From a virus, in IMG/VR virus record IMGVR_UViG_3300029672_000003: DNA of 62,525 bases; one strand, given 5' to 3'. Numbering within the stretch: the first letter of the stretch is position 1; every line of letters begins with the position of its first letter. This document shows, piece after piece, positions 1 through 62,525 of this stretch. A program made the translations under genes and the position numbers. Below the pieces are notes generated by a model, which was not told the DNA's origin, did no database searches, and worked only from the letters and a program-made list of their open reading frames with translations.

Positions 1-99
1 TAAACTTCACAACTATTTTTGAATTTCTCAAAAGAGTTATAACAAATGTTGCTTGTTCCTCATTCAAATAATAAACTCTTTCCGGCTGTCCCCTTTTCC
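1..99. repeat. Terminal overlap identical to 62427-62525 (circular contig closure; unit genome 62,426 bp)
   Basis: The first 99 nt (taaacttcacaac...ctgtccccttttcc) recur exactly as the last 99 nt. An ORF reads continuously across the join. Confidence 0.95.
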
Positions 100-261
100 C
101 CGATTTTAAATCGGAGAAATCAATATTGCCAAAGTCTAAAATATCTTTCTCATATTTTCTGATAATAGCAACAACAGATTCATGTTGGTTATTTGTTCCA
201 TCTGCAATCACTTTGCTGTTTGTAAAAACATCGTTTCCTTTGAGTTCCACCAATTCATACA
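1..261 (-). CDS. Rha-family phage regulatory protein, N-terminal part (continues from 62038-62426 across the circular junction). There is an apparent 1-nt frame discontinuity after codon 8.
   Basis: ATG at 261 with RBS AAAGGTGGA gives MYELVELK and then stops. The long frame (GNDVFTNSKVIADGTNNQHESVVAIIRKYEKDIL..., Rha-like) is open only from 253 and is reached by a -1 shift at CTCAAGGAAAC. Confidence 0.6.
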
Positions 262-345
262 TACTCTTTTCCACCTTTCTTTCGCTACTGTCATTTGACA
301 GGCAGGTTTAAATTTCATTTTTTTATTTTTCTTATGCAGTTTGAA

Positions 346-394
346 ATAAATAAAAAGACCGCCAAAGACTGAATCTCTTCAATCTCTGGCGGTC
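346..394 (-). terminator. Rho-independent terminator after the Bro-N antirepressor operon
   Basis: Minus strand GACCGCCAGAG...CTTTGGCGGTC (10 of 11 bp) followed by TTTTTATTTATTT. Confidence 0.7.
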
Positions 395-503
395 ACGAAT
401 CCGCACCTATTCCTCATAGGCTTGCAGGACGTCCTAAATTTCTTTAGGTCTTACCTGCGTGATTTTTAATTATTTTGTATTCTATACCATATGCCAAAAT
501 CTG

Positions 504-1265
504 TCAATCAAATTCCAACCTCTGCTGCATATTGGCATCGTCAATCTGTTCCTGCAAAAAATACGGCGTCTGATAGGCATTTATCACTTCCACTGCCTTG
601 TCGCACTGGTTACGCTTGATGCTCTTGTAAGACCGAACACCAAAGTTGTATTTCAGATTGGCATACAGATTGTTGTAAACCTTTTGGCGCAATCCACGGT
701 TGCTGTATGCGCTTGACTGTTTGCCGCCCATGATTGAAACGCCTTTCTTTCTGACAGCTTCCGTAATGCGGTCGGCTTCCACCGGAAGTATCGGCAAGTC
801 CATCTTAAGGCTTTCCAAATCCGCCTTGATTTCGTCGACCTCTGCTTTAAGCTCCGTGTGCCCCTGTGCAAGCAATGCAATCTTCCCGTCCGTGGTCTGC
901 GGCATCATGTATGTACCAGTCTTTCTGATGCTCGGTAAAACTTCATCAAATATCCATTTTTCCAATTTGTCAGCTTTATCTTTTATTTCTTTACTGTTAC
1001 CCTGTTGACCAGCTTTAATAATCAATCGGTAAATATCTCCTTCCGGAATAAGAGGTTCTGCATATCCACCATTATTTTTAAAGCTATCCTCGACCAGGAC
1101 ACCCTTGCAATTATCCGAAACCGCCTTTCTTGGTCTTTTATACATAAGCATCGAAGCTATATCTACTCCAAAAAAGTATTCTTTTCCGTTTACTATAACC
1201 GTTCTCAAATCCCCTAAAATAGGATTGTTAAAAATCTGAATATTTTTCATCAGCAAATCCCCCAT
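504..1265 (-). CDS. Phage antirepressor, Bro-N domain plus ORF6C-like C-terminal domain (probable true start at the ATG at 1250)
   Basis: N-terminus IFNNPILGDLRTVIVNGKEYFFGVDIASMLMY...AVSDNC is Bro-N-like, with a coiled-coil/ORF6C-like C-terminus. The second ATG overlaps the stop of the upstream 35-aa ORF (TGATG). Confidence 0.8.
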   Translation of the reverse strand: MGDLLMKNIQIFNNPILGDLRTVIVNGKEYFFGVDIASMLMYKRPRKAVSDNCKGVLVEDSFKNNGGYAEPLIPEGDIYRLIIKAGQQGNSKEIKDKADKLEKWIFDEVLPSIRKTGTYMMPQTTDGKIALLAQGHTELKAEVDEIKADLESLKMDLPILPVEADRITEAVRKKGVSIMGGKQSSAYSNRGLRQKVYNNLYANLKYNFGVRSYKSIKRNQCDKAVEVINAYQTPYFLQEQIDDANMQQRLEFD

Positions 1266-1357
1266 TTCTGCTTAAATGAAATAATTGTGTTCAAAATAAA
1301 CTGCAAAAATTTTTCGTCCTGTATGCTCTGGATTTCCGTTATCAGCTGTTCTTTCAT
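1250..1357 (-). CDS. 35-aa micro-protein, family member 1 (MKEQLITEIQSIQDEKFLQFILNTIISFKQKWGIC)
   Basis: ATGA overlap with the upstream 40-aa ORF and TGATG overlap with the antirepressor start. Paralogs at 27236-27343 and 55111-55251. Confidence 0.6.
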   Translation of the reverse strand: MKEQLITEIQSIQDEKFLQFILNTIISFKQKWGIC

Positions 1358-1476
1358 CTCGCACCGCCTTTCTTGTCGGATGCAAGGTTACTTGTAAAAA
1401 TCCAGACACATCTTAAAAAGTGTTCGCTAAGTAAATTCAGATTTTTGGTAATTGCTTCAATATAAAATTCTTTCAT
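1354..1476 (-). CDS. 40-aa micro-protein (MKEFYIEAITKNLNLLSEHFLRCVWIFTSNLASDKKGGAR)
   Basis: TAATG overlap with the upstream ORF and ATGA overlap with the next. Paralog at 27340-27462 with about 36 of 40 residues identical. Confidence 0.55.
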   Translation of the reverse strand: MKEFYIEAITKNLNLLSEHFLRCVWIFTSNLASDKKGGAR

Positions 1477-1982
1477 TATCTTGCACCGCCTTTCTTTACA
1501 AGGCGGTAAATACCGTCGTGATCTATTACGTCCTCATCATTCAAATCTGCCATAAATATTACAACGCCGCGCAACAATTTTTCGTTATCACATCGGATTG
1601 CAAGCCGAGAAAGCAACGATCTGTACTGCTCAATTTGGCTCGGTAAATAAGTTCCATCCTTTTTTATGATTTCATTTCTGAAAATGTCCTTAAGAATTTC
1701 GCTGGCAATATCAACCTCATCGGATTCGTTCGGCAGTCCGAGCAAATTCATGGCTGATGTTACCACTTTGCGAAAACCAAGCGGAGAAAAATTATCAATG
1801 TCCGTTTCGGTACTCCAACCACGGTTATACTTCATCCTCTCGATTTCCACAACATGATTCACTTTCTCCATCAGCGCGTCACTATTAAGTATCGTTCTTA
1901 CAATTTCTTCAATGCTTCTCATAGATTTTACCTTCCTTTCGTTTGCTGTTTGACAACCATTCCAAAAAGCGGTATAATCCAT
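1476..1982 (-). CDS. Hypothetical protein (probable start MRSIEE at about 1922)
   Basis: Long ORF. RBS GAAAGGAAGG precedes the internal ATG. The 5' 60 nt overlap a strong hairpin (CCAAAAGCGGT/ACCGCTTTTTGG). Confidence 0.6.
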   Translation of the reverse strand: MDYTAFWNGCQTANERKVKSMRSIEEIVRTILNSDALMEKVNHVVEIERMKYNRGWSTETDIDNFSPLGFRKVVTSAMNLLGLPNESDEVDIASEILKDIFRNEIIKKDGTYLPSQIEQYRSLLSRLAIRCDNEKLLRGVVIFMADLNDEDVIDHDGIYRLVKKGGAR

Positions 1983-2015
1983 GTATCAACCGCTTTTGGT
2001 GGCTGTAAGTGTAAG

Positions 2016-2028
2016 AGTAACCGTTACT
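2016..2028. promoter_or_regulatory. AGTAAC-C-GTTACT palindrome spanning the stop codon of RHH gene 1 (GTAAC-type operator-like site)
   Basis: Perfect 6-bp arms. The same half-site occurs in the CI/Cro operators. Confidence 0.4.
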
Positions 2029-2215
2029 TGTCTAGGGCTTCGGTTGCTCTTATTTCGTTATAGACCTTATCAATCCCCTTCATTACTACATCATATTGCG
2101 TCATTCCGGTCTTTTCACAGCAATATAGAAGTTTTTCTCTATCTTTTTCTGTTGCTCTTACTTTTATAATGTTATTTTTGGGATTATCTGTCGGTCTTCC
2201 TGTTCTTGGTGACAC
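2024..2215 (-). CDS. Ribbon-helix-helix (CopG/Arc-like) DNA-binding protein, copy 1
   Basis: (V/M)SPRTGRPTDNPKNNIIKVRATEKDREKLLYCCEKTGMTQYDVVMKGI. GTG start 8 nt after GGAGATG. Paralog at 27581-27757. Confidence 0.7.
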   Translation of the reverse strand: MSPRTGRPTDNPKNNIIKVRATEKDREKLLYCCEKTGMTQYDVVMKGIDKVYNEIRATEALDK

Positions 2216-2232
2216 TGTTTCATCTCCTTTCT

Positions 2233-2276
2233 TTTGTGTACACATAAATGTTAATATATGAGTACACAAAAGTCAA
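2233..2276 (-). promoter_or_regulatory. Promoter with flanking 9-bp inverted repeat (operator) for RHH gene 1
   Basis: Minus strand TTGACT (2271-2276), 17 nt, TAACAT (2248-2253). TTTGTGTAC / GTACACAAA arms at 2233-2241 and 2262-2270. Confidence 0.55.
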
Positions 2277-2296
2277 TACCCTTTTGAAATATTTTT

Positions 2297-2322
2297 CAAA
2301 AAAAGAAGCGCATCTCTGCGCT
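2297..2322 (-). terminator. Rho-independent terminator
   Basis: Minus strand AGCGCA-GAGA-TGCGCT followed by TCTTTTTTTG. Confidence 0.75.
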
Positions 2323-2504
2323 CCCTCTTATATACCCGCTTTCCCCAGCCTTTCCCAATCTGCATCCCTAGTACATTCATCCTTTTTCTTCAATAAGTTT
2401 TCGTTCTCTTTTTCCAGTTTTTCTATTTTTATTTCCAATTTCTTTTTCTCTTTTTTCAATGCAATATTCTCTTTTTCCAAATCGTCCGCACGAATAAGCG
2501 CGTT

Positions 2505-2750
2505 TTACTCCCTATTAAAAAGATCAGTATTGTGCGCCTTTAATGCATCTTTTTCTTTATTTAACTCTCTTATTTCCCATTTGTAATTCTTTTTATCTTG
2601 CGTCATCTTAATTTTCAATTCTTCTATCGTTTGATGTGCTTTATTCAACTTCTTTTTGCACTCATTTAGTTCTGATTCAGACTCCCTATTCTCCATCGTA
2701 ATTCTCCACATATTAAATCCAAATTTATATGAAAGTGTAGCCACAATCAT
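2505..2750 (-). CDS. Coiled-coil protein (probable start MENRESE at 2696). The frame stays open for 58 more codons beyond its TAA.
   Basis: Heptad-like K/E/L-rich sequence. RBS GGAGAA lies before the ATG at 2696. Confidence 0.55.
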   Translation of the reverse strand: MIVATLSYKFGFNMWRITMENRESESELNECKKKLNKAHQTIEELKIKMTQDKKNYKWEIRELNKEKDALKAHNTDLFNRE

Positions 2751-3228
2751 TACATATAATTTTATTTATTTCATATGTTTGATCTTTTCTCAAAATCTTT
2801 TCCTTTTTATTTACTAAAGTAAACGGTTTAAATGGATTTAGATTTGCAGTGTATCTTGTCTTTGTTTTGCCTGGTACAAATTTCTGCTCCGTATAATGAG
2901 AACAATTTTCGCTCCCACATCTTGGACAGTAAACCTCTTTTTTTTCTCCGAATAAAGTATATTTATATATACCATTAAATCCCGTGTTTTGAGATCTTTC
3001 AACAGAATTTCTTAAGAATAATTTTCCAACACCTGTAATCTCTGGCTCTTTTGGGCGTTCCCACCCTCTATCATTTTCGTTTTCTTGTTCGTATGATTTA
3101 TAAAATTCACTTTTCCCCGCAGACATTTCATTGTTTTCGTGTTGTTTCAACGGAAATCCGCAATTGATACACATTTCTGCTTTGTCTGAAATTTCTTTTC
3201 CACATTCAGGACATTTAATCAACGCCAT
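2725..3228 (-). CDS. Double zinc-ribbon protein
   Basis: N-terminal CPECGKEISDKAEMCINCG. C-terminal CPRCGSENC...CNDCGY. Confidence 0.7.
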   Translation of the reverse strand: MALIKCPECGKEISDKAEMCINCGFPLKQHENNEMSAGKSEFYKSYEQENENDRGWERPKEPEITGVGKLFLRNSVERSQNTGFNGIYKYTLFGEKKEVYCPRCGSENCSHYTEQKFVPGKTKTRYTANLNPFKPFTLVNKKEKILRKDQTYEINKIICNDCGYTFI

Positions 3229-3402
3229 GTGTTACCCTCCCGCCACTTGTAATAAAATGATTCTACCACAAGTGGCGGTTTTTGTCACTACTGTGCATTA
3301 GAACTTTATCCCCAAACAGGATCAAATGCTGAACTGTCTCCGTATCTTCGTTTTGCCTCGCCCTTGTAAACTGTTCTGGCGGCATTGAATAATCATTATC
3401 GC

Positions 3403-4284
3403 TTAATATCCCACTTGTTCAGCCGCATATTGTGCTTCTTCATCGGTAAATTTTACATATTTTAATTGGTCTATAAGTCCCTGCTTTGAAAATGATGTCA
3501 AATCTAAATAACTCTTTGCTTTTTTCACAGCTTCTTTTTTCCAGTCAGCACCGCAATTATCTGCCGCGTACACTGCTTCTTCATGTGTATACTGTTCGTA
3601 TTCTAACTGTTCAATCATCCCTTGATATGAAAAACCTGCTAAATCAAGATATCTCTTTGCTTGTTTCAAGGCATTTTGCTGCCCAAGCGTTATTTGTTCA
3701 CTTTCTTGTATCTCTTCCGATGTATCAGTTGTTTCACCAATTCCATATTTCGAATATAGATTTTCTGTTTGTACAATCATTTCCGATGCTTTACCGCTAA
3801 ATTCATCTGGAATCTTAAAATGGTCAATTTTTTCGTTTATTGTATCTTTTACAATTTTCCCATTTTCTACAATATAAGAATACTCTTCGTCTCCTATGTA
3901 CCCTACATAAGAAACTGATAATCCAAGTTCTTGTGGACGCTTGCATATGCAATAGCAGTCAAAATACATAACATAAATATTATCATAATGACCATATGCA
4001 CCTACGCAGTATTTATTCCCGTCTTCAAATATTCCAACAAAATTATTGTTTTTATCGTCATATTCAAAGTTAGCCCCCTCAACCCCGGCTTTTACTTCGT
4101 TTTGTTCTGTTTCTTTTGTTAAATTCTGATCTCTATCATTATTTTCTTCTTTGCTTTGATGCTCGCTATAATATTCTTCCGTTTTTTCGCTTTCAACGGT
4201 TGAATATTCGTTATCAAGATTTCCGCTACACCCTATAAGCACCACGGTAGCCATTGCCAAAAATACTATCCCCCACTTTTTCAT
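3403..4284 (-). CDS. ltp: Ltp-family surface lipoprotein (superinfection-exclusion type)
   Basis: Signal peptide plus lipobox (LIGCSGN). Two C-terminal Ltp repeats (NALKQAKRYLDLAGFSYQGMIEQLEYEQYTHEEAVYAADN... / AVKKAKSYLDLTSFSKQGLIDQLKYVKFTDEEAQYAAEQ). Confidence 0.85.
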   Translation of the reverse strand: MKKWGIVFLAMATVVLIGCSGNLDNEYSTVESEKTEEYYSEHQSKEENNDRDQNLTKETEQNEVKAGVEGANFEYDDKNNNFVGIFEDGNKYCVGAYGHYDNIYVMYFDCYCICKRPQELGLSVSYVGYIGDEEYSYIVENGKIVKDTINEKIDHFKIPDEFSGKASEMIVQTENLYSKYGIGETTDTSEEIQESEQITLGQQNALKQAKRYLDLAGFSYQGMIEQLEYEQYTHEEAVYAADNCGADWKKEAVKKAKSYLDLTSFSKQGLIDQLKYVKFTDEEAQYAAEQVGY

Positions 4285-22474: not shown

Positions 22475-22513
22475 CAACACCCAAGACATACCTAGGATTT
22501 TCGCTCGGGCAAA

Positions 22514-22595
22514 CGCCGTACACAGGATTTGAACCTGCAAGCCTTTTACAGCCAACGGTTTTCAAGACCGCTCCCTCACCACCCGGACATACGGC
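22514..22595 (-). tRNA. tRNA-Ser(UGA), class II
   Basis: Acceptor GCCGTAT/GTACGGC (one G-U). Anticodon arm GCGGT-CTTGAAA-ACCGT. T arm GCAGG-TTCAAAT-CCTGT. The variable arm is long but pairs poorly, and no CCA is encoded. Confidence 0.65.
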
Positions 22596-22599
22596 ATAG

Positions 22600-22684
22600 C
22601 GCAGTGTGTAGGACTCGAACCTACAAGGCGAACAAACGCCCGGCGGCTTAGCAAGCCGTTCCAATACCATTATGGGAACACTGC
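22600..22684 (-). tRNA. tRNA-Ser(GCU), class II
   Basis: Perfect acceptor GCAGTGT/ACACTGC. D stem CCA/TGG. Anticodon loop TTGCTAA. 5-bp variable stem GGGCG/CGCCT. T arm GTAGG-TTCGAGT-CCTAC. Confidence 0.85.
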
Positions 22685-22774
22685 ATCTTGATGGTGCGAT
22701 TTCTTAAACAACCCATCCATTACAACTGTCTACCACGCACCTGCCAAACAGTGTTTTTAGGGAGTTGAGTGAAA

Positions 22775-22864
22775 TAGGGAAGAGAGGAATCGAACCTCTA
22801 TTGTTTACCACTTGGGAACTGATTTACAGTCAGCCGCAACACCGCCAATCGTTGCCGCTTCCCC
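22775..22864 (-). tRNA. tRNA-Tyr(GUA), class II
   Basis: Acceptor GGGGAAG/CTTCCCT. D stem GCAAC/GTTGC. Anticodon arm GCTGA-CTGTAAA-TCAGT. Long variable arm. T arm AGAGG-TTCGATT-CCTCT. Confidence 0.8.
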
Positions 22865-23363: not shown

Positions 23364-23425
23364 GTGGAGCGACAGGAATCAAACCTGCGACCGATTGAAT
23401 GCTCTACCAACTGAGCTACGTTCCA
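23364..23425 (-). ncRNA. 62-nt tRNA-like element lacking an anticodon arm
   Basis: Acceptor TGGAACG/CGCTCCA (one A-C mismatch). Canonical TA-GCTC-AGTTGGTA-GAGC D arm. T arm GCAGG-TTTGATT-CCTGT. Only ATTCAATCGGTC (about 11 nt) sits where about 22 nt of anticodon arm plus variable loop belong. Confidence 0.5.
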
Positions 23426-23893: not shown

Positions 23894-23964
23894 TTTCTTT
23901 AGCAGGATTCGAACCTACGAATACTGGAATCAAAATCCAGTGCCTTACCGCTTGGCGATAGCGC
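23894..23964 (-). ncRNA. tRNA-Gln(UUG)-like element without an acceptor stem
   Basis: TC-GCC-AAGCGGTAA-GGC D arm. CTGGA-TTTTGAT-TCCAG anticodon arm. GTAGG-TTCGAAT-CCTGC T arm. The 5' AGCGCTA (part of the palindrome ATAGCGCTAT) cannot pair with the 3' TAAAGAA. Confidence 0.5.
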
Positions 23965-25695: not shown

Positions 25696-25841
25696 AATCT
25701 GTTCTGGATCCTGTTTTAATTAAATGATATATATACTTCTCCGTCTCCGTTGTAGTTCTCAATCGCCTTTTCTGCCTCCTCATAATTTGCACAGGCAGCA
25801 AACAAGCAACGGAAATGTGGTTATTGATCATTTGATCGAAG

Positions 25842-25940
25842 CGCAGATTTTACATCTTTCGGAAATTTTATAAATTTGAAATCTGCGTAGCATAGCCGAA
25901 ACGCCCTCAGGGGCTTCAGCCGCGGGATGGTCTCCCGGCT
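25842..25940. ncRNA. Unassigned structured segment: a 9-bp-stem hairpin (CGCAGATTT/AAATCTGCG) followed by a GC-rich multi-hairpin element
   Basis: AGCCGAAAC-GCCC-TCAG-GGGC-TTCAGCC-GCGGGA-TGG-TCTCCCGGCT. The only ORF over it (25821-26051) has no RBS and is implausible. Confidence 0.3.
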
Positions 25941-26047
25941 CTGACGATGGCAGAAGGGAAAAAATATGATCGTTGAAGAAAGAAAAAAGATAGCGTTGAT
26001 CTGTAGAGTATTAAAGATGTTATAAAAGCAAAAGCACCCGGGGGCGG

Positions 26048-26194
26048 TCATTTTTCTTTCCGAATAGTTTGCGCTGTAAAAATCAAAGACCTTGCGGCAT
26101 AGTCGCTCCTGCTTAATTCATCCATCAACTTTTCCCTTGTCATTTCTGGATTTGTCTTTTGAACATATCTTAACAATTCATCTACTTTGTCCAT
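26048..26194 (-). CDS. 48-aa protein, translationally coupled to the metallopeptidase gene
   Basis: TAATG overlap. MDKVDELLRYVQKTNPEMTREKLMDELSRSDYAARSLIFTAQTIRKEK. Confidence 0.5.
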   Translation of the reverse strand: MDKVDELLRYVQKTNPEMTREKLMDELSRSDYAARSLIFTAQTIRKEK

Positions 26195-26514
26195 TATGCT
26201 GCCCTCCAATCAATGTTTGCCATCAAATCATCCAGCAAATAAATCAAATCTGCCCCATACAGGCTGATCCAGTCCGCAAGATACTCTTCCTGCTCAATCG
26301 GCATATGAATGTTATAGGAAAAGCAAAAACAATGACAAAGTTCATGAGCCAGTATTTTGCGCAAATAGCCATTTTCTGGTTTATCCGAAACATATATTAT
26401 CCTATCATTCCAATCAGTCACAGCAAGGCTAATAGAGCCATCAGATCGCATCAGCTTACTGCTTGCACCGCGGACAAATTTTATTTCCCATTCAATACCA
26501 TTTATCACAAACAT
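26194..26514 (-). CDS. Small HExxH zinc metallopeptidase (ImmA/IrrE-like)
   Basis: ILAHELCHCF motif. 106 aa. Immediately downstream of an antirepressor-class gene. Confidence 0.5.
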   Translation of the reverse strand: MFVINGIEWEIKFVRGASSKLMRSDGSISLAVTDWNDRIIYVSDKPENGYLRKILAHELCHCFCFSYNIHMPIEQEEYLADWISLYGADLIYLLDDLMANIDWRAA

Positions 26515-26576
26515 ATTTTACCTCCAAAAAAAGAAACCACCAGCCAAATATCAGCCAGTGATTTCTAAATTTAAAG

Positions 26577-27251
26577 TTATTCTTCTTGCTCTTCAATCAA
26601 CAAATAATTAATGTACCTTGTTGCTGTTCCAGCAAGTTCTTTGCTGTAGTCTAGCAAGTCCATCTTGTACTCCGGTTTATGCCCATATGTGACTGTATAG
26701 AACTTTTCCACAAGTTCTAAGTTATGTAAGTCAGACAATTCCACAAGAATTTTGTGATATAAAAATTTTCTCGTCCATCCGAACCGGTCACAGATAATTT
26801 TGAGTTTCCAGTTATTTTTATTAAACCATTTACCACTTTCTATCTTTTTTACGATGCTCCAGCGTGCAAACGGGTCTTTCTCCGGAATTTCAGCCTGCGT
26901 ATTTTTCAGAGCCTGTTCCATGTCGTGGAAGCGATTGATGTATTGAGCCGTGAAAGCCGTTCCCTTAACTCCGGTCAGCTTGTGCGCGATAAATTCGCAT
27001 CCTTTCTTGGTAATGTCATAGCATGGGCGTTCTTTTCCTTGCTCGTCCTTATAGGTGTTTTCTCTGAAGAAATCAGCCACATCAATTTTGATTTTACCTG
27101 TAATATTGTTTTGTTCCATCTGTTTACAGTACCTTTTGATATCTCGTAACATGTTTGCGTGTGTCTTTTCGACCATTTCCGCAACTTCCATGCTGGTTAG
27201 AGTTTGCTCTAATTGTTTCATCTGAATATCGTTCATCAGCAAATCCCCCAT
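26577..27251 (-). CDS. Rha-family phage regulatory protein (probable start MNDIQM at 27236)
   Basis: LTSMEVAEMVEKTHANMLRDIKRY... is Rha-like. Its start is coupled (TGATG) to the 35-aa micro-ORF. Confidence 0.75.
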   Translation of the reverse strand: MGDLLMNDIQMKQLEQTLTSMEVAEMVEKTHANMLRDIKRYCKQMEQNNITGKIKIDVADFFRENTYKDEQGKERPCYDITKKGCEFIAHKLTGVKGTAFTAQYINRFHDMEQALKNTQAEIPEKDPFARWSIVKKIESGKWFNKNNWKLKIICDRFGWTRKFLYHKILVELSDLHNLELVEKFYTVTYGHKPEYKMDLLDYSKELAGTATRYINYLLIEEQEE

Positions 27252-27343
27252 TTCTGTTTAAATGAAAGTATCGTGTTCAAAATAAACTGCAAAAATTTTT
27301 CGTCCTGTATGTTCTGAATTTCTGTAATTAACTGTTCTTTCAT
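27236..27343 (-). CDS. 35-aa micro-protein, family member 2 (MKEQLITEIQNIQDEKFLQFILNTILSFKQKWGIC)
   Basis: Paralog of 1250-1357 with the same overlaps. Confidence 0.6.
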   Translation of the reverse strand: MKEQLITEIQNIQDEKFLQFILNTILSFKQKWGIC

Positions 27344-27462
27344 CTTGTACCGCCTTTCTTGTCAGATGCAAGGTTACTTGTAAAAATCCAGACACATCTT
27401 AAAAAGTGTTCGCTAAGTAAATTCAGATTTTTTGTAATTTCTTCAATATACAGTTCTCTCAT
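27340..27462 (-). CDS. 40-aa micro-protein (MRELYIEEITKNLNLLSEHFLRCVWIFTSNLASDKKGGTR)
   Basis: Paralog of 1354-1476. RBS AAAGGTAG upstream. Confidence 0.55.
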   Translation of the reverse strand: MRELYIEEITKNLNLLSEHFLRCVWIFTSNLASDKKGGTR

Positions 27463-27551
27463 AATAATCTACCTTTCTTTCAAAAAATACTTGATTTTCC
27501 GCAAGGAAATGATAGAATATATTTATCAGTCCTTGCGGATTGGTGTTTTAA

Positions 27552-27586
27552 GAGTAACTTCTACTTGTCTATGGTGTAAGTTACTC
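27552..27586. promoter_or_regulatory. Inverted repeat GAGTAACTT-N17-AAGTTACTC spanning the stop codon of RHH gene 2
   Basis: 9-bp perfect arms. The half-site is identical to CI/Cro operator O-a (AGTAACTT). Confidence 0.45.
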
Positions 27587-27757
27587 TTTTTCCTTGCCTA
27601 AAAGTAAATGAATACCTCTGCGAATTGCTTCTGCTCTTGTAATGTTATTTTCAATGCAATATTTATCTAACTCGCTTGTGGTTTTATCGTCAAGCCTAAC
27701 TTTTACATCATTGCTTTTCGGATTATTTATTTTAGGTCTGCCTGTTCTTGGACTCAT
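27581..27757 (-). CDS. Ribbon-helix-helix (CopG/Arc-like) DNA-binding protein, copy 2
   Basis: MSPRTGRPKINNPKSNDVKVRLDDKTTSELDKYCIENNITRAEAIRRGIHLLL. RBS GTGAGGTGG. Confidence 0.75.
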   Translation of the reverse strand: MSPRTGRPKINNPKSNDVKVRLDDKTTSELDKYCIENNITRAEAIRRGIHLLLGKEKE

Positions 27758-27776
27758 TTTTACCACCTCACTTATT

Positions 27777-27820
27777 GAGTTCCACAATCTCATTATATTT
27801 ATTGGAACTCATAATGTCAA
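27777..27820 (-). promoter_or_regulatory. Consensus promoter with an 8-bp inverted repeat flanking the -10, for RHH gene 2
   Basis: Minus strand TTGACA (27815-27820), 17 nt, TATAAT (27792-27797). GAGTTCCA/TGGAACTC at 27803-27810 and 27777-27784. Confidence 0.65.
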
Positions 27821-27916
27821 TACCTTTTTAAAGATTTTTCCTGCCTTTCAATTTTTTCTTGAAAAGAGATACTCTCTATGATAAAATATTTCACAGAGAG
27901 TTATCTCGGTTTTAGG

Positions 27917-27960
27917 GCAGTTGCATGACCGTCAAATCATTTGCAACTGCTCTTTTTGTT
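27917..27960 (+). terminator. Strong hairpin whose U-tract lies on the plus strand
   Basis: GCAGTTGCA-N16-TGCAACTGC followed by TCTTTTTGTT on the plus strand. On the minus strand it is followed by CCCTAAAACC. Confidence 0.4.
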
Positions 27961-28217
27961 TAACTGCTGATTTCTTCATCAACCTTGTTGTCAAGCCACT
28001 CTTTTTTAGTCATTCCTTTTTCAAAAAGTTTTTCTTCTAACTTTTCAAACTTCTCCCTGTCAAGCTCAACACTAAAATTTCTTGTCTTTTCTCTACGTTG
28101 TTTCATATAATCAGCTCTGCTCTTGGGTGCGATTTTAACCACCTCCTTGTTACGAGTTACATTATATAATGTTACATGTAACAAGTCAATACCTTTTTGA
28201 AAAATTTCCAAATCCAC
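27960..28217 (-). CDS. Small charged protein, RHH-like (5' end uncertain; in-frame ATG at 28106)
   Basis: ...KSRADYMKQRREKTRNFSVELDREKFEKLEEKLFEKGMTKKEWLDNKVDEEISS. The promoter lies inside the track ORF, so the true start is downstream of 28160. Confidence 0.5.
   Translation of the reverse strand: MDLEIFQKGIDLLHVTLYNVTRNKEVVKIAPKSRADYMKQRREKTRNFSVELDREKFEKLEEKLFEKGMTKKEWLDNKVDEEISS
28161..28189 (-). promoter_or_regulatory. Consensus promoter embedded in GTTAC/GTAAC palindromes
   Basis: Minus strand TTGACT, 17 nt, TATAAT. GTTACATGTAAC and CTTGTTAC...GTAACAAG repeats. RBS AAGGAGGT at 28141-28148. Confidence 0.6.
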
Positions 28218-28248
28218 AAATCACTAGCTGATATTCAGTTGTCAATGT

Positions 28249-28277
28249 TCAAACAAACAGGGGCATTTCTGCCCCTG
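28249..28277 (-). terminator. Rho-independent terminator ending the cargo cluster
   Basis: Minus strand CAGGGGCA-GAAA-TGCCCCTG followed by TTTGTTTG. Confidence 0.8.
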
Positions 28278-28280
28278 TCA

Positions 28281-28928
28281 TTACATTTTGGAAACAAGCG
28301 TTGACAGCTTGCTCTTTGTCATTGTGCGCTCTTCCGGTGTCATGTCGGAGATAAGTTCCGCCATATCCTCCGAAAGCTCTTTCATGTATTTTTCAAGGTC
28401 ATGCATCTTTGCGTCCTTGTCCTCCGGCGTATTGCCCTTGTGAAGCTCTTTGCTTTCCATGTAGCTTCTACGGCTCATGCCGCTTTTGCCCTCTCTGCGA
28501 TCACGCATACCACCATCTGGTGTCATTTTAGGCTCGGTATAATACATTCTGCCGGAAGAACGATCCATATCACGGTCGTGTTCCATTTCCCGGTACATTT
28601 CCGGTGTCATGTGCCAGTAAGGCGGCTCGTCATATCCTCTCCGCGTTCCTCTTCCCTTTGGCGCAAATCTTCCGTCTGCATACCGGTAACGGTCATAATA
28701 CCGTCTGCCGTCTCCGTAACGCTCAAACATATCAAGAACCTGTTCTGGGTCTGATTCGTCCATTGATTTTGTAAGCGTCCGGTAATACATTGCTTCTGCA
28801 AGGTCTTTCATCATGTCTGTAACCTGTCCCATTTCACACGGGTCTATATTTTCAATTCCTTTGTCAATTTCGCATTTAGCACATTCAGACAGTTTTTCAA
28901 TCATGTCGTGCATTCTCATAATATCCAT
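28281..28928 (-). CDS. Hypothetical M/R/D/Y/E-rich protein (215 aa)
   Basis: Strongly biased composition (RRYYDRYRYADGRF..., MTPEMYREMEHDRDMDR...). Confidence 0.6.
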   Translation of the reverse strand: MDIMRMHDMIEKLSECAKCEIDKGIENIDPCEMGQVTDMMKDLAEAMYYRTLTKSMDESDPEQVLDMFERYGDGRRYYDRYRYADGRFAPKGRGTRRGYDEPPYWHMTPEMYREMEHDRDMDRSSGRMYYTEPKMTPDGGMRDRREGKSGMSRRSYMESKELHKGNTPEDKDAKMHDLEKYMKELSEDMAELISDMTPEERTMTKSKLSTLVSKM

Positions 28929-31334: not shown

Positions 31335-31543
31335 GTGTTACCTTTAGTGTTACCTTTGATTTTGACCTTTAGAAAAGACACCATTCAAAAACTCCTTTCT
31401 TTCAGTAAAATCAAGGCTTCACAAGGTTTTCTTAAGCAAAAATAAAGTAGCGGAAGGGAGATTCGAACTCGGTATCAATTCTCTCAAACCCGCATAAATA
31501 CTGAATTTCTTTATCTCCAAAGGTGTTACCTCGTGTTACCTTT
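31335..31543 (-). other. attP region: a 23-nt tRNA 3'-end core (31448-31470) flanked by four direct GTGTTACCT arm-type repeats
   Basis: Core on the minus strand is GAGTTCGAATCTCCCTTCCGCTA (T loop, 3' T stem, 3' acceptor strand). Repeats at 31335, 31347, 31523 and 31533, all in one orientation, directly next to int. Confidence 0.65.
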
Positions 31544-32745
31544 TACATTGATAATGCTTTTGCAATATATTCCTGCATTTCACTCTCTGTCTTGTTATTA
31601 AAATAGTAATGATCGAGAGTTGTTCTGATATCTGTATGCCCCATTTGTGTTTTTATTACCGATTCTGGAACATTTCCATCTATCAACTTTGTTGCATATG
31701 TCTTTCTTGCCTTGTGAATTGAACGTTCGCCAATTCCTATTCTATCACATATCACATATAGCCGCCTTGTAAATGCCTGACCTTTTATTCGTTTACCGTT
31801 TTTCATAAAAATATATTGCCCAAATGGATTGAGCATTTTTATTTTTCTCATAAGTTCTTTGGTATCTGCGGTAATTATAACATCTCTAAACCCGGCATCA
31901 CTTTTAGGAAAATTTTGAACATCAAATACATATTTGCCATTATCATCTCTATATCTTATTTCTGTCTTTGATATATGTATCTTATTTTCTCCGACATCAG
32001 ACCATGAGAGGGTAGATATTTCCCCAACTCTCAATCCTGTTTTAAATGCCAAAATAATGCCAAGTTCTATCAATGTAGGCTCATCTTCCATTACAAATCG
32101 TTCAATTAAAAGTTCCTCATCCTTAGAAAATACCAATTCGCAGTCTGACTTATAGTTCTTTTTAAATGACTTTTCCGAAATTTCCAAATCACCCATAAAA
32201 CTGGTTATGCTCAGGCTGGTATAATGTTTTTTCTTTGCATATTTGAAAATTCCGTTAATCAATATCCGCATATCAGAATAAGCTTTTTGCGTAAGTTCCA
32301 GTTTTGAAATAGCTGTTTTTATGAATGATTCCAATATTTCTTCATCAATGTACCGAATTTTTCTATTTGCAATCGGCAAATACTTATTTTCAAAAAATCT
32401 TTTAAAATTTGTCTCGTACTTGTCCTTTGTCTGTCTTGTTATTTCACCATATTCAAGTTTTTCAGAAATCCAATTAGAATATACCTGAATAACTGTAGGT
32501 TCATCCTCCTTAGCTTTATAGAACTTTACTATTTCATCTTCAATTGCTTTTTCAGATGTTCTCTTTACAAGTCTCTTTCCTCTCTTATTATCTTCATCTG
32601 GCAAATATGTGTAAAACTTTCCATCTTTTCCTTGCCAAATGCTGTAAGTGTGTTTTTCAATAAATTTTTTCCTTTCGTTCATTTCAATTTTTTTCTGAAT
32701 GGTGTCTATGTTGATAATACCATTTTCGATGGCAATATTCAACAA
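31543..32745 (-). CDS. int: Tyrosine integrase
   Basis: C-terminal HKARKTYATKL...MGHTDIRTTLDHYY catalytic motifs. N-terminal arm-binding-type domain. Confidence 0.9.
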   Translation of the reverse strand: MLNIAIENGIINIDTIQKKIEMNERKKFIEKHTYSIWQGKDGKFYTYLPDEDNKRGKRLVKRTSEKAIEDEIVKFYKAKEDEPTVIQVYSNWISEKLEYGEITRQTKDKYETNFKRFFENKYLPIANRKIRYIDEEILESFIKTAISKLELTQKAYSDMRILINGIFKYAKKKHYTSLSITSFMGDLEISEKSFKKNYKSDCELVFSKDEELLIERFVMEDEPTLIELGIILAFKTGLRVGEISTLSWSDVGENKIHISKTEIRYRDDNGKYVFDVQNFPKSDAGFRDVIITADTKELMRKIKMLNPFGQYIFMKNGKRIKGQAFTRRLYVICDRIGIGERSIHKARKTYATKLIDGNVPESVIKTQMGHTDIRTTLDHYYFNNKTESEMQEYIAKALSM

Positions 32746-62037: not shown

Positions 62038-62525
62038 CTAAGCGGACAGGTAAGTTATATCTGCAAATTGTTCTATTCTATTTTTACAATCCCTATAAAT
62101 ATCCTTGTAGTGCATACCCATTGACATATCAATTCTAATAGTCTGCAAAATAATGCTTTCTACAAGGGTTAAATTATTGAGATCTGAAACTGTGATATTG
62201 TCGCGATTTCCACCAATTACTGATTTTGCAAACTTGGTATATGTCACATACAGTTTATCTGAATGCGTACTTCCTTGTTCTTTGGCATAGTCTACAAGGA
62301 GTTTAATCACATCAGTTTCTTTCAGCCGATTTTCTTTATTAGCGATTCTTGTTTCGCCCCATAGTTTCGATTGCTTTTCAAGAATAAATCTGCGCATTGC
62401 ATAAAACTGTCGAACCAACTCTTTCTTAAACTTCACAACTATTTTTGAATTTCTCAAAAGAGTTATAACAAATGTTGCTTGTTCCTCATTCAAATAATAA
62501 ACTCTTTCCGGCTGTCCCCTTTTCC
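62038..62525 (-). CDS. Rha-family regulatory protein, C-terminal part (frame continues into 1-253; 62427-62525 duplicates 1-99)
   Basis: ...YLNEEQATFVITLLRNSKIVVKFKKELVRQFYAMRR... The ORF runs off the contig end and resumes at base 1. Confidence 0.7.
   Translation of the reverse strand, partial: KRGQPERVYYLNEEQATFVITLLRNSKIVVKFKKELVRQFYAMRRFILEKQSKLWGETRIANKENRLKETDVIKLLVDYAKEQGSTHSDKLYVTYTKFAKSVIGGNRDNITVSDLNNLTLVESIILQTIRIDMSMGMHYKDIYRDCKNRIEQFADITYLSA

Follow-up and report, generated by a model that had tools for sequence, protein, structure and literature searches.

In phage P1, the small open reading frame (ORF) icd lies upstream of the antirepressor gene ant and is coupled to it. Antirepressor synthesis in P1 is blocked by c4 RNA at the ribosome-binding region, and in phage P22 translation of ant is blocked by sar, an RNA of 68/69 nucleotides (nt) (PMC12197685). 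In plasmid pMV158, as outlined in the legend to Fig. 1 of PMC5717011, the countertranscript RNAII from the copG-repB intergenic region inhibits downstream translation, and in copB-tap-repA of plasmid R1 the antisense RNA CopA exerts its control on the short leader ORF tap, to which repA is coupled (PMC5717011). The Gifsy phages have noncleavable main repressors and antirepressor genes far from the immunity region that can act in trans on other prophages (PMC3121763). Here, two gene cassettes are described from the 62,525-nt DNA of the IMG/VR virus record IMGVR_UViG_3300029672_000003 (this whole stretch is referred to as the window), in which a ribbon-helix-helix (RHH) regulator gene is followed by two coupled micro-ORFs and a gene of the antirepressor class. 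The cassettes are best read as immI-like units combining the control logics of P22 arc-sar-ant, pMV158 CopG-RNAII and R1 CopA-tap, a reading in which we place slightly better than even confidence.

Both cassettes contain a near-identical repeat, for which a length of 231 bp had been proposed from the sequence alone; the repeat is present but longer, 246 nt at 91% identity (1234 to 1479 and 27220 to 27465), and extends about 15 nt into the effector genes, whose products begin MN(N/D)IQ. Apart from a 99-nt circularization overlap, the window contains no other long internal repeat. The cassette layout is far beyond chance; the same arrangement was found in the comparative set of 106 cassette instances from related phage contigs (effector and ORF35 counts given below are over 99), and the circuit was found at 161 or more places in public viral contigs. 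Each cassette is closed by an intrinsic terminator, with a 17-bp stem and T-run in cassette 1 (357 to 394, minus strand) and a 16-bp stem and T-run in cassette 2 (26532 to 26566, minus strand), so that the cassettes are bounded as autonomous units. The original prediction that the two loci share one design held, each of its elements being found at its place or within a few bases of it. To these elements a 148-amino-acid (aa) gene in cassette 1, a third RHH unit, antisense units, and a two-state leader were added.

The downstream effector genes differ between the cassettes as had been predicted, and the Pfam and PHROG matches agree. Effector 1 is a Bro-N plus ORF6C protein (504 to 1250, minus strand; Pfam ORF6C 5.5e-31 and Bro-N 4.3e-9; phrog_463 anti-repressor 7e-54), and effector 2 belongs to the Rha family (26577 to 27236, minus strand; Pfam Phage_pRha 1.4e-26; phrog_373 anti-repressor 5e-31); judged by these families, both are putative antirepressors. 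In the 99 related cassettes, the effector was of the Rha type in 69 and of the Bro-N/ORF6C type in 30, some of them truncated to 60 aa, and the diverged cassette L028 carries an ORF6N effector. The proposal that the repeat marks a boundary at which effectors are swapped thus agrees with these counts but is too narrow, since the regulators are swapped too. At least eight RHH types (A, B, C, D, E, F, RHH2, and RHH3), each with its own terminator hairpin, and the leader variants alpha, beta/beta2, gamma/gamma2, and delta were distinguished. Around an invariant micro-ORF pair, these RHH and leader types are combined in many ways with each other, with the effector types, and with the 148-aa insert.

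The RHH gene is the first gene of the effector operon in each cassette, as the small Arc-like repressor is in P22 immI. RHH1 (2024 to 2218, minus strand) encodes 64 aa from a GTG start after AAAGGAG (VSPRTGRP...) and matched phrog_876, transcriptional repressor, at 4e-17, with just a weak subthreshold RepB-RCR_reg match in Pfam. RHH2 (27581 to 27757, minus strand) encodes a 58-aa CopG-family RHH repressor (Pfam RHH_1 2e-5, 24.8 bits against a cutoff of 20.5; phrog_876 3e-15) that is 41% identical to RHH1. The promoter scan placed a promoter ahead of RHH1 at 2248 to 2276 (minus strand; TTGACT-17-TAACAT), the -10 hexamer of which is bracketed by a 10-bp inverted repeat (2232 to 2241 and 2262 to 2271), a putative RHH operator, and both promoter and repeat recurred in 26 related loci. 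The RHH2 promoter (27792 to 27820, minus strand; TTGACA-17-TATAAT, 12/12) is likewise bracketed at its -10 by an 8-bp inverted repeat (27777 to 27784 and 27803 to 27810); bracketing repeats of 8 to 9 bp had been predicted. The repeats around the -10 are specific to each of the eight or more RHH types. The promoter scan of both spacers between the RHH genes and the downstream genes revealed no sense-strand promoter. As in pMV158, a CopG-family RHH protein, here a putative autorepressor, would be cotranscribed with the controlled gene from one promoter; unlike in pMV158, the controlled gene encodes a phage regulator and not a Rep initiator. In contrast to P22 immI, there is no divergent Mnt-like gene.

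Upstream of RHH2, a third, RHH3-like unit was recognized, with a promoter at 28161 to 28189 (minus strand; TTGACT-17-TATAAT, 11/12) flanked by GTAAC/GTTAC repeats and a small regulator gene (...RNFSVELDREKFEKLEEKLFEKGMTKKEW...) at 27960 to 28142 (minus strand; phrog_3896 4e-27 and a weak phrog_876 match), the start codon of which is uncertain. Relative to loci L009 and L010, the RHH2 unit (27484 to 27831) is an extra insertion placed exactly at the start codon; in L010, L012, and L014, the RHH3 unit is followed by leader beta and ORF40 with no RHH2 unit between. Most RHH types begin SPRTGRP or SPAGRP (2195 to 2218 and 27734 to 27757, and related loci). The GRP core resembles an AT-hook, and it might bind the AT-rich stretch around the -10 that the operator repeats enclose.

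Every spacer between an RHH gene and the downstream gene contains a strong convergent promoter on the plus strand, followed by a terminator, from which a cis-antisense RNA of 65 to 75 nt is predicted. In cassette 1 (leader alpha), the antisense promoter at 1950 to 1978 (plus strand; TTGACA-17-TATAAT, 12/12) is the only perfect match in positions 1 to 3400, and the predicted small RNA (sRNA) 1 (1985 to 2060, plus strand; about 74 nt; fold z score -3.2) would consist, in order, of a 5' tail complementary to a leader arm, a terminator hairpin (2013 to 2051) over the RHH1 stop codon, and a U-rich tail. The beta unit (27859 to 27961) comprises a promoter at 27859 to 27887 (plus strand; TTGAAA-17-TGnTAAAAT) and a predicted sRNA at about 27894 to 27961 (plus strand; terminator hairpin 27915 to 27952; fold z score -5.2), and the gamma unit (27491 to 27596) comprises a promoter at 27491 to 27518 (plus strand; TTGATT-16-TGnTAGAAT) and a predicted sRNA at about 27525 to 27596 (plus strand; z score -4.95) with a terminator hairpin (27550 to 27588) over the RHH2 stop codon. 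In all three spacers, the hairpin and T-run follow the antisense promoter after about 35 nt and overlap the RHH stop codon.

Element-by-element comparison of nine antisense units was used to read covariation. All nine distinct combinations of RHH 3' end and leader keep the -35, the 16- to 17-nt spacer, the -10, a distance of about 25 nt, and then an antisense-oriented terminator despite differing sequences; the -10 is extended by TGn in seven of the nine, and the other two have perfect hexamers. In all seven hairpin types (7/7), the T-run lies on the antisense side only, with no U-tract on the sense strand, and two terminator hairpins (those of sRNA 1 and beta) form G.U pairs on the antisense (plus) strand where the sense strand has C.A or A.C. 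The terminator stems of the A, B, R2, E, and F types differ by compensatory changes, E and F by A:T to G:C. These strand-specific signals, namely T-runs, G.U pairs, and compensatory changes, support an RNA made from the plus strand, and the existence of the antisense sRNAs is a strong prediction from the DNA. The loop motif TAGACAAGT, present in three terminator hairpins, was also tried as a genome-wide signal and was dropped, with 13 matches in the window against 13.35 expected.

In its position, the predicted RNA resembles the approximately 70-nt convergent antisense RNA from the repressor-antirepressor spacer of P22 immI, the intergenic countertranscript of pMV158, which is a Gram-positive system, and the antisense RNA over the R1 intergenic region, where the repressor gene also comes first and a short leader ORF provides coupling. 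The c4-icd-ant1/ant2 immI loci of P1/P7 likewise have an RNA regulator and a small coupled ORF before ant, with RNA specificity setting heteroimmunity; in contrast, c4 is processed out of the sense transcript itself and recognizes short target boxes in trans, whereas a convergent cis-antisense transcript plus an RHH repressor is predicted here.

Each antisense promoter has its -10 within the loop of a leader inverted repeat, and the leader can adopt two mutually exclusive folds. In leader alpha (1920 to 1999, minus strand), arm A (1999 to 1990) pairs with arm B (1972 to 1962), and in the alternative fold, B:C, arm B and the loop pair with the Shine-Dalgarno sequence (SD) GAAAGGAAGG (1940 to 1931) and the AUG (1922 to 1920). 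The inverted-repeat arms of leaders beta and gamma are at 27866 to 27877 and 27895 to 27907 and at 27499 to 27507 and 27530 to 27538, respectively. The A:B hairpin had z scores of -3.0 (alpha), -6.6, -7.9, -6.7 (gamma), -7.2, and -5.9 in six leader variants of unrelated sequence, and gamma and gamma2 differ in A:B by a compensatory C:G to A:T change. The B:C hairpin reached -22 kcal/mol with a z score of -5.5 in alpha, -17.9 kcal/mol with -3.6 in beta, and -25.5 kcal/mol with -7.7 in delta; the delta arm B can pair over 14 nt with ACAGGAGGTATGTT, and the G.U pairs of this match are possible on the sense strand only. The predicted sRNAs are complementary to arm A and start upstream of the SD in the mRNA sense without overlapping it. 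Unlike sar, the sRNA would therefore lie off the ribosome-binding site and act by refolding the leader, and two competing hairpins distinguish the leader from that of pMV158.

The same spacer elements could be explained without an antisense RNA. On this view, a dimeric protein (a host factor, cI, or the effector) would bind the inverted repeats as DNA operators, the hairpins behind the RHH genes would attenuate read-through, and the plus-strand hexamers would be incidental or serve promoter occlusion only. In its favor, a -10 lies between the arms of the spacer repeats just as it does in the putative RHH operators, the Bro-N, KilA-N, and Rha domains bind DNA, and compensatory changes within an inverted repeat would be no less expected if it were a symmetric operator. 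We nevertheless regard this explanation as quite improbable in view of the -35, spacing, TGn, and -10 kept in nine otherwise different variants, the seven hairpin types with T-runs on the antisense side only, and the two with strand-specific G.U pairs. Arm B is, moreover, complementary to the SD as well, with G.U pairs confined to the sense strand. Finally, the leader type tracks neither RHH type nor effector type, which argues against binding of the leader repeat by a cassette-encoded protein.

The micro-ORFs are joined in both copies as had been predicted, the 40-aa and 35-aa ORFs (ORF40 and ORF35) by ATGA and the effector start by TGATG. ORF40 copy 1 (MKEFYIEAITKNLNLLSEHFLRCVWIFTSNLASDKKGGAR; 1354 to 1476, minus strand) holds the SD for ORF35 at its 3' end, and ORF35 copy 1 (MKEQLITEIQSIQDEKFLQFILNTIISFKQKWGIC; 1250 to 1357, minus strand) holds the SD GGGGGA for the effector; the second copies are at 27340 to 27462 and 27236 to 27343 (both minus strand). 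ORF40 was intact in 105 of the 106 cassettes and ORF35 in 99 of 99, and both overlaps were invariant. The location of the SDs AAAGGCGGTG and GGGGGA in the ORF tails, together with the overlaps, is the layout of leader-ORF coupling, and neither internal SD is hidden by significant local structure (z scores -1.5 and -1.0). In locus L014, a 14-nt deletion that removes the internal SD fuses ORF40 to ORF35 in frame. A frameshift at the G5 tract fusing ORF35 to the effector was also considered for the 280- and 295-aa calls in L002 and L005; it was rejected because these loci share the G5 sequence of all other loci, the calls being start choices of the gene caller.

In cassette 1, a 148-aa ORFan (1476 to 1922, minus strand) stands between RHH1 and ORF40, immediately behind the leader. 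Its product ends in ...KKGGAR, its stop codon overlaps the ORF40 start as TAATG, and the same junction sequence AAGAAAGGCGGTGCRAGAT ends ORF40. It is missing from most related cassettes (window positions 1477 to 1916), where the leader runs straight into ORF40, and it occurs with other regulator types. No Pfam or PHROG match was obtained for it, the homologues found were all close (86 to 99% identical), and a Foldseek search of the PDB with a poor AF2 model (predicted local distance difference test [pLDDT] 64) returned nothing at E ≤ 0.001. With two coupled upstream ORFs, or three in cassette 1, the arrangement differs from the single tap of R1, and P22 and pMV158 have no such micro-ORFs between repressor and effector or controlled gene.

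ORF35 is clearly protein coding and under strong purifying selection. Its variable sites are distributed 3/4/22 over the codon positions (22/29 at position 3; P = 3.4e-6), and the two copies differ by 0.023 at nonsynonymous (pN) and 0.457 at synonymous (pS) sites; against the diverged L028 cassette, pS was 0.79 and pN was 0.18. Unlike tap, ORF35 is a conserved micro-protein with stand-alone paralogues and not a mere leader peptide. Homologues 38 to 65% identical, obtained in exhaustive and profile searches with alignments and the natural 70-aa ORF40-ORF35 fusion P0021, keep the hydrophobic pattern, and relatives of 39 to 46 aa end ...FL.FL..TI.SFKKKWGI. Besides the two tandem micro-ORF pairs, the genome carries a third ORF35-family micro-gene (...KEKITEMVVKCDNERFLKFLYNTILSFKKKWGI; 55111 to 55251, minus strand) with its own promoter (TTGACG-17-TATAAT; 55325 to 55297), which interlocks convergently with the cI-like gene (54764 to 55114, plus strand) over a bidirectional terminator common to both. 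The same stand-alone arrangement beside cI was found in an unrelated phage family (L025 to L032). These stand-alone relatives beside cI indicate that the ORF35 peptides are more than leader ORFs and are tied to immunity genes, and the family consists of real micro-proteins, probably with a function in their own right. The original prediction had treated the micro-ORFs as translationally coupled leader peptides and had named coding-type conservation as their test: the coupling layout was confirmed, and coding conservation was found for ORF35 but, by codon position, not for ORF40. ORF35 is predicted to form a single soluble helix (pLDDT 85), and its family had no match among PDB sequences. Paralogy of ORF40 and ORF35 was no more than suggested by hhalign (P = 0.014, probability 3%), was not supported statistically, and is not claimed.

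These data also bear on the view that the repeat is a recent duplication or recombination scar with micro-ORFs that are nonfunctional or purely cis-acting leader ORFs. The two copies are 91% identical as DNA, and the 17 variable sites of ORF40 have no codon-position bias. In addition, L023 (ENA ERZ27253224 k141_275638) joins the upstream flank of cassette 1 (tail protein, zinc-ribbon, and RHH type A) to the downstream flank of cassette 2 (Rha and the 106-aa gene); either recombination across the repeat produced this contig or its assembly is chimeric. A scar would, however, hardly give the strong third-position bias and the pN/pS of about 0.05 of ORF35, the stand-alone homologues have their own promoter and terminator, and L028 keeps both ORFs and their overlaps with ORF35 synonymous sites near saturation and an ORF40 counterpart (42 aa, same coupling) that is only 37% identical, all of which makes this view very improbable. 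The repeat itself has no significant RNA structure (z scores -1.5 and -1.0), and its interpretation as a structured RNA was set aside in favor of coding.

Prophages of Firmicutes carry type I toxin-antitoxin systems, and RHH first genes and antisense-controlled small ORFs are typical of toxin-antitoxin loci in general. The cassettes could accordingly pair an RHH antitoxin with peptide toxins, or a type I antisense RNA with a toxic peptide that it silences. Both possibilities are scarcely credible and were rejected in view of what the peptides are made of and where they are encoded: unlike the hydrophobic type I peptides, ORF40 and ORF35 have an amphipathic, charged character along their whole length and contain no segment of sufficient length to form a membrane helix, the micro-ORFs always precede a large gene with a DNA-binding domain in a coupled chain, and no toxin family was matched in Pfam or PHROG (the PADLOC library was not searched).

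A further observation concerns ORF40 codons 11 to 14 (AAAAATCTGAAT; 1435 to 1446), which are complementary to effector codons 4 to 7 (ATTCAGATTTTT; 1230 to 1241); eight base pairs are kept in copy 2 (27421 to 27428 with 27219 to 27226). This long-range pairing may be the reason why the repeat reaches into the effector genes and may add to the coupling.

Taken together, an antirepressor-type protein of the KilA-N/Rha class would be held under three stacked controls in each autonomous cassette. A strong sigma-A promoter would drive the RHH gene, and the RHH protein would repress its own promoter through the repeats bracketing the -10. The hairpin next to the RHH gene lacks a U-tract on the sense strand, and transcription would continue past it into the downstream genes; the convergent spacer promoter would yield a cis-antisense RNA ending at the terminator over the RHH stop codon and complementary to arm A. 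The A:B fold would leave the SD free, whereas the B:C fold would cover the SD and AUG of the first downstream ORF; by sequestering arm A, the sRNA would let B:C form and switch translation off. The decision would be relayed through the overlapping stop and start codons along the chain (148-aa ORFan), ORF40, ORF35, and effector, in which every ORF carries the ribosome-binding site for its successor in its 3' end. Upon entry into a naive cell, a burst of effector, which may inactivate the cI-like repressor, would be followed by shut-off, and a resident phage of the same RHH/sRNA specificity would shut the effector off in trans, as expected of an immI-type second immunity or anti-immunity region.

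Several points weigh against this mechanism. The sRNA, its start site, and its effect are predictions, and Rfam 15, searched with gathering and permissive thresholds, contained no family for the sRNA or the leader (best E values of 0.22 in 300 to 2400 and, the hammerhead ribozyme described below aside, 3 in 25700 to 28300). The B:C hairpin is weak in gamma (-12 kcal/mol; z score -1.0) and gamma2 (-14 kcal/mol; z score -2.0), and gamma is the leader ahead of the micro-ORFs of cassette 2 in the window; the case for a leader switch is weakest there. B:C exceeds A:B in stability in alpha and delta even when the sRNA is absent, so that the ON state and the switch would there be kinetic. The leader inverted repeat could instead be a protein operator, as discussed above. 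ORF40 lacks a codon-position signal (5/5/7 at 17 variable sites; P = 0.33). The Bro-N, ORF6C, and Rha families are functionally heterogeneous, the antirepressor label being a family annotation only, and the location of cassette 1 in the tail-gene region beside an Ltp-type exclusion lipoprotein fits a lysogenic-conversion moron too.

The last two points lead to an account that retains the regulatory shell and takes the payload, the effectors and/or the micro-proteins, for accessory moron functions, such as host or phage transcription factors, superinfection exclusion, or defense/anti-defense effectors, in place of antirepressors. Cassette 1 lies between tail protein and tail-fiber genes, terminators bound both cassettes as they do morons, the antirepressor label stems from Pfam and PHROG family names only, and the 148-aa ORFan can occupy the same expression slot. 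Against this, cassette 2 is on the integrase side of the genome, and its Rha gene is always followed by a gene for an HExxH (ImmA-like) protein. The cI-like repressor has an HTH_3 domain and no peptidase domain, which makes a nonproteolytic or accessory route of derepression plausible; two phage families have an ORF35-family gene adjoining cI; and Gifsy phages have antirepressor genes outside the immunity region (PMC3121763). The moron account is possible, though we would not expect it to prove correct.

Regarding the neighborhood of the cassettes, the gene following the Rha effector, wherever related loci include the downstream flank, encodes a 106-aa HExxH protein (26194 to 26514, minus strand) with weak Peptidase_M78/SprT matches and phrog_87 metallo-protease at 1.4e-4; judging from these matches, it could be an ImmA-like repressor protease. 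Upstream of cassette 1, in the tail-gene region, an accessory-gene island encodes an Ltp-type surface lipoprotein (3403 to 4284, minus strand) and a zinc-ribbon protein (2725 to 3228, minus strand); the Ltp-type family is associated with superinfection exclusion. A promoter-like site, TTGACA-17-TAGAAT (507 to 479, minus strand), lies at the extreme end of the Bro-N/ORF6C gene and is followed by a highly structured stretch of 125 nt (z score -8.0) that ends in the cassette 1 terminator (window 348 to 507) and could be a 3' untranslated region element or a small RNA.

With respect to the systems named at the outset, the cassettes work, by analogy, like immI and CopG-RNAII and are filed as a variant rather than a member. 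They were not assigned to P22 immI because the predicted RNA does not pair directly with the ribosome-binding site, a divergent mnt is absent, and antirepression by the effectors is putative; the parallel drawn by the original prediction applies to the RHH gene in first position and the antisense unit at the position of sar. As in P22, a second immunity locus is set away from the main repressor gene, but two cassettes are present per genome, the putative host is an uncultured gut Firmicute, and the effectors belong to the Bro-N/ORF6C or Rha families and are at most putative counterparts of Ant. Gifsy-, 186-, and N15-type phages likewise have antirepressor genes outside the immunity region and noncleavable main repressors; unlike their small proteins, which are controlled by LexA, the effectors here would be controlled by a cassette-encoded RHH protein and a predicted sRNA. 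The control principles are classical. What is new in gut Firmicutes phages is how they are combined, the cassette duplication, the combinatorial specificities, and a micro-protein family linked to immunity.

The repeat scan showed that positions 1 to 99 of the window are an exact repeat of 62427 to 62525, and because of these identical 99-nt ends the window is taken as a circularly closed contig of 62,426 bp, a complete phage genome. The phage is siphovirus-like, encoding an SPP1-type portal, an E-type major capsid protein, terminase, and a tail fiber with an S74 chaperone domain besides DnaB helicase and a DNA methylase, and it is temperate, since a tyrosine integrase (31543 to 32745) is present. 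Its nearest relatives are uncultured human-gut phages, and its portal is less than 50% identical to the nearest portal protein in GenBank phages. Neither the repeat DNA nor the 70-aa ORF40 plus ORF35 protein concatenate had a match among GenBank phages, and scanning of GTDB genome contigs with the micro-ORF alignment gave no match. In the immunity region (54.4 to 55.3 kb), a cro-like and an AntA-like gene accompany the cI-like HTH_3 gene, the sole plus-strand gene of the genome; every cassette gene is on one strand.

A third gene of the antirepressor class (AntA domain, 4.4e-12; 52475 to 53419, minus strand) was located in the early operon, separated by about 1 kb with small ORFs from the cro-like gene upstream of it. 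It adds to the two cassette effectors, giving three different antirepressor-type proteins per genome. Just downstream of cassette 2, in the gene-poor stretch of about 25.2 to 26.0 kb, a type II hammerhead ribozyme (25894 to 25959, plus strand; Rfam RF02276, 54.4 bits against a gathering score of 37) was detected on the strand opposite nearly all genes. tRNA genes are clustered at 22513 to 22864 (minus strand), with further positions at 23364 to 23425 and 23900 to 23960 (minus strand); ARAGORN called two tRNA-Ser and one tRNA-Tyr, and two more tRNA-like Rfam matches were not called by it.

Little is understood of the decision between lysogeny and induction in the temperate phages of gut Firmicutes, whose repressors mostly lack a self-cleavage domain. 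The cassettes offer a compact and testable circuit of an RHH autorepressor, a predicted cis-antisense RNA, a bistable leader, coupled micro-genes, and an antirepressor-type protein, in which the P22 arc-sar-ant logic and the plasmid CopG-RNAII and CopA-tap logics have come together in phages of a different phylum. Trans-silencing by resident relatives would be expected to favor a high diversity of regulators around a constant output. A broader and rather unlikely reading, put forward tentatively, is that the cassettes serve gut Firmicutes phages as a system of combinatorial heteroimmunity, with eight or more RHH/operator and four or more antisense-RNA/leader specificities exchanged around the constant output, and that the ORF35 family is a new class of lysis-lysogeny regulators, micro-proteins of 35 to 46 aa and a single helix that would bind the noncleavable cI-like repressor or the KilA-N/Rha effectors. 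In these phages, recombination shuffles the specificity of the regulators and not the payload alone, and if the predictions hold, cross-induction and heteroimmunity would occur among co-resident gut prophages.

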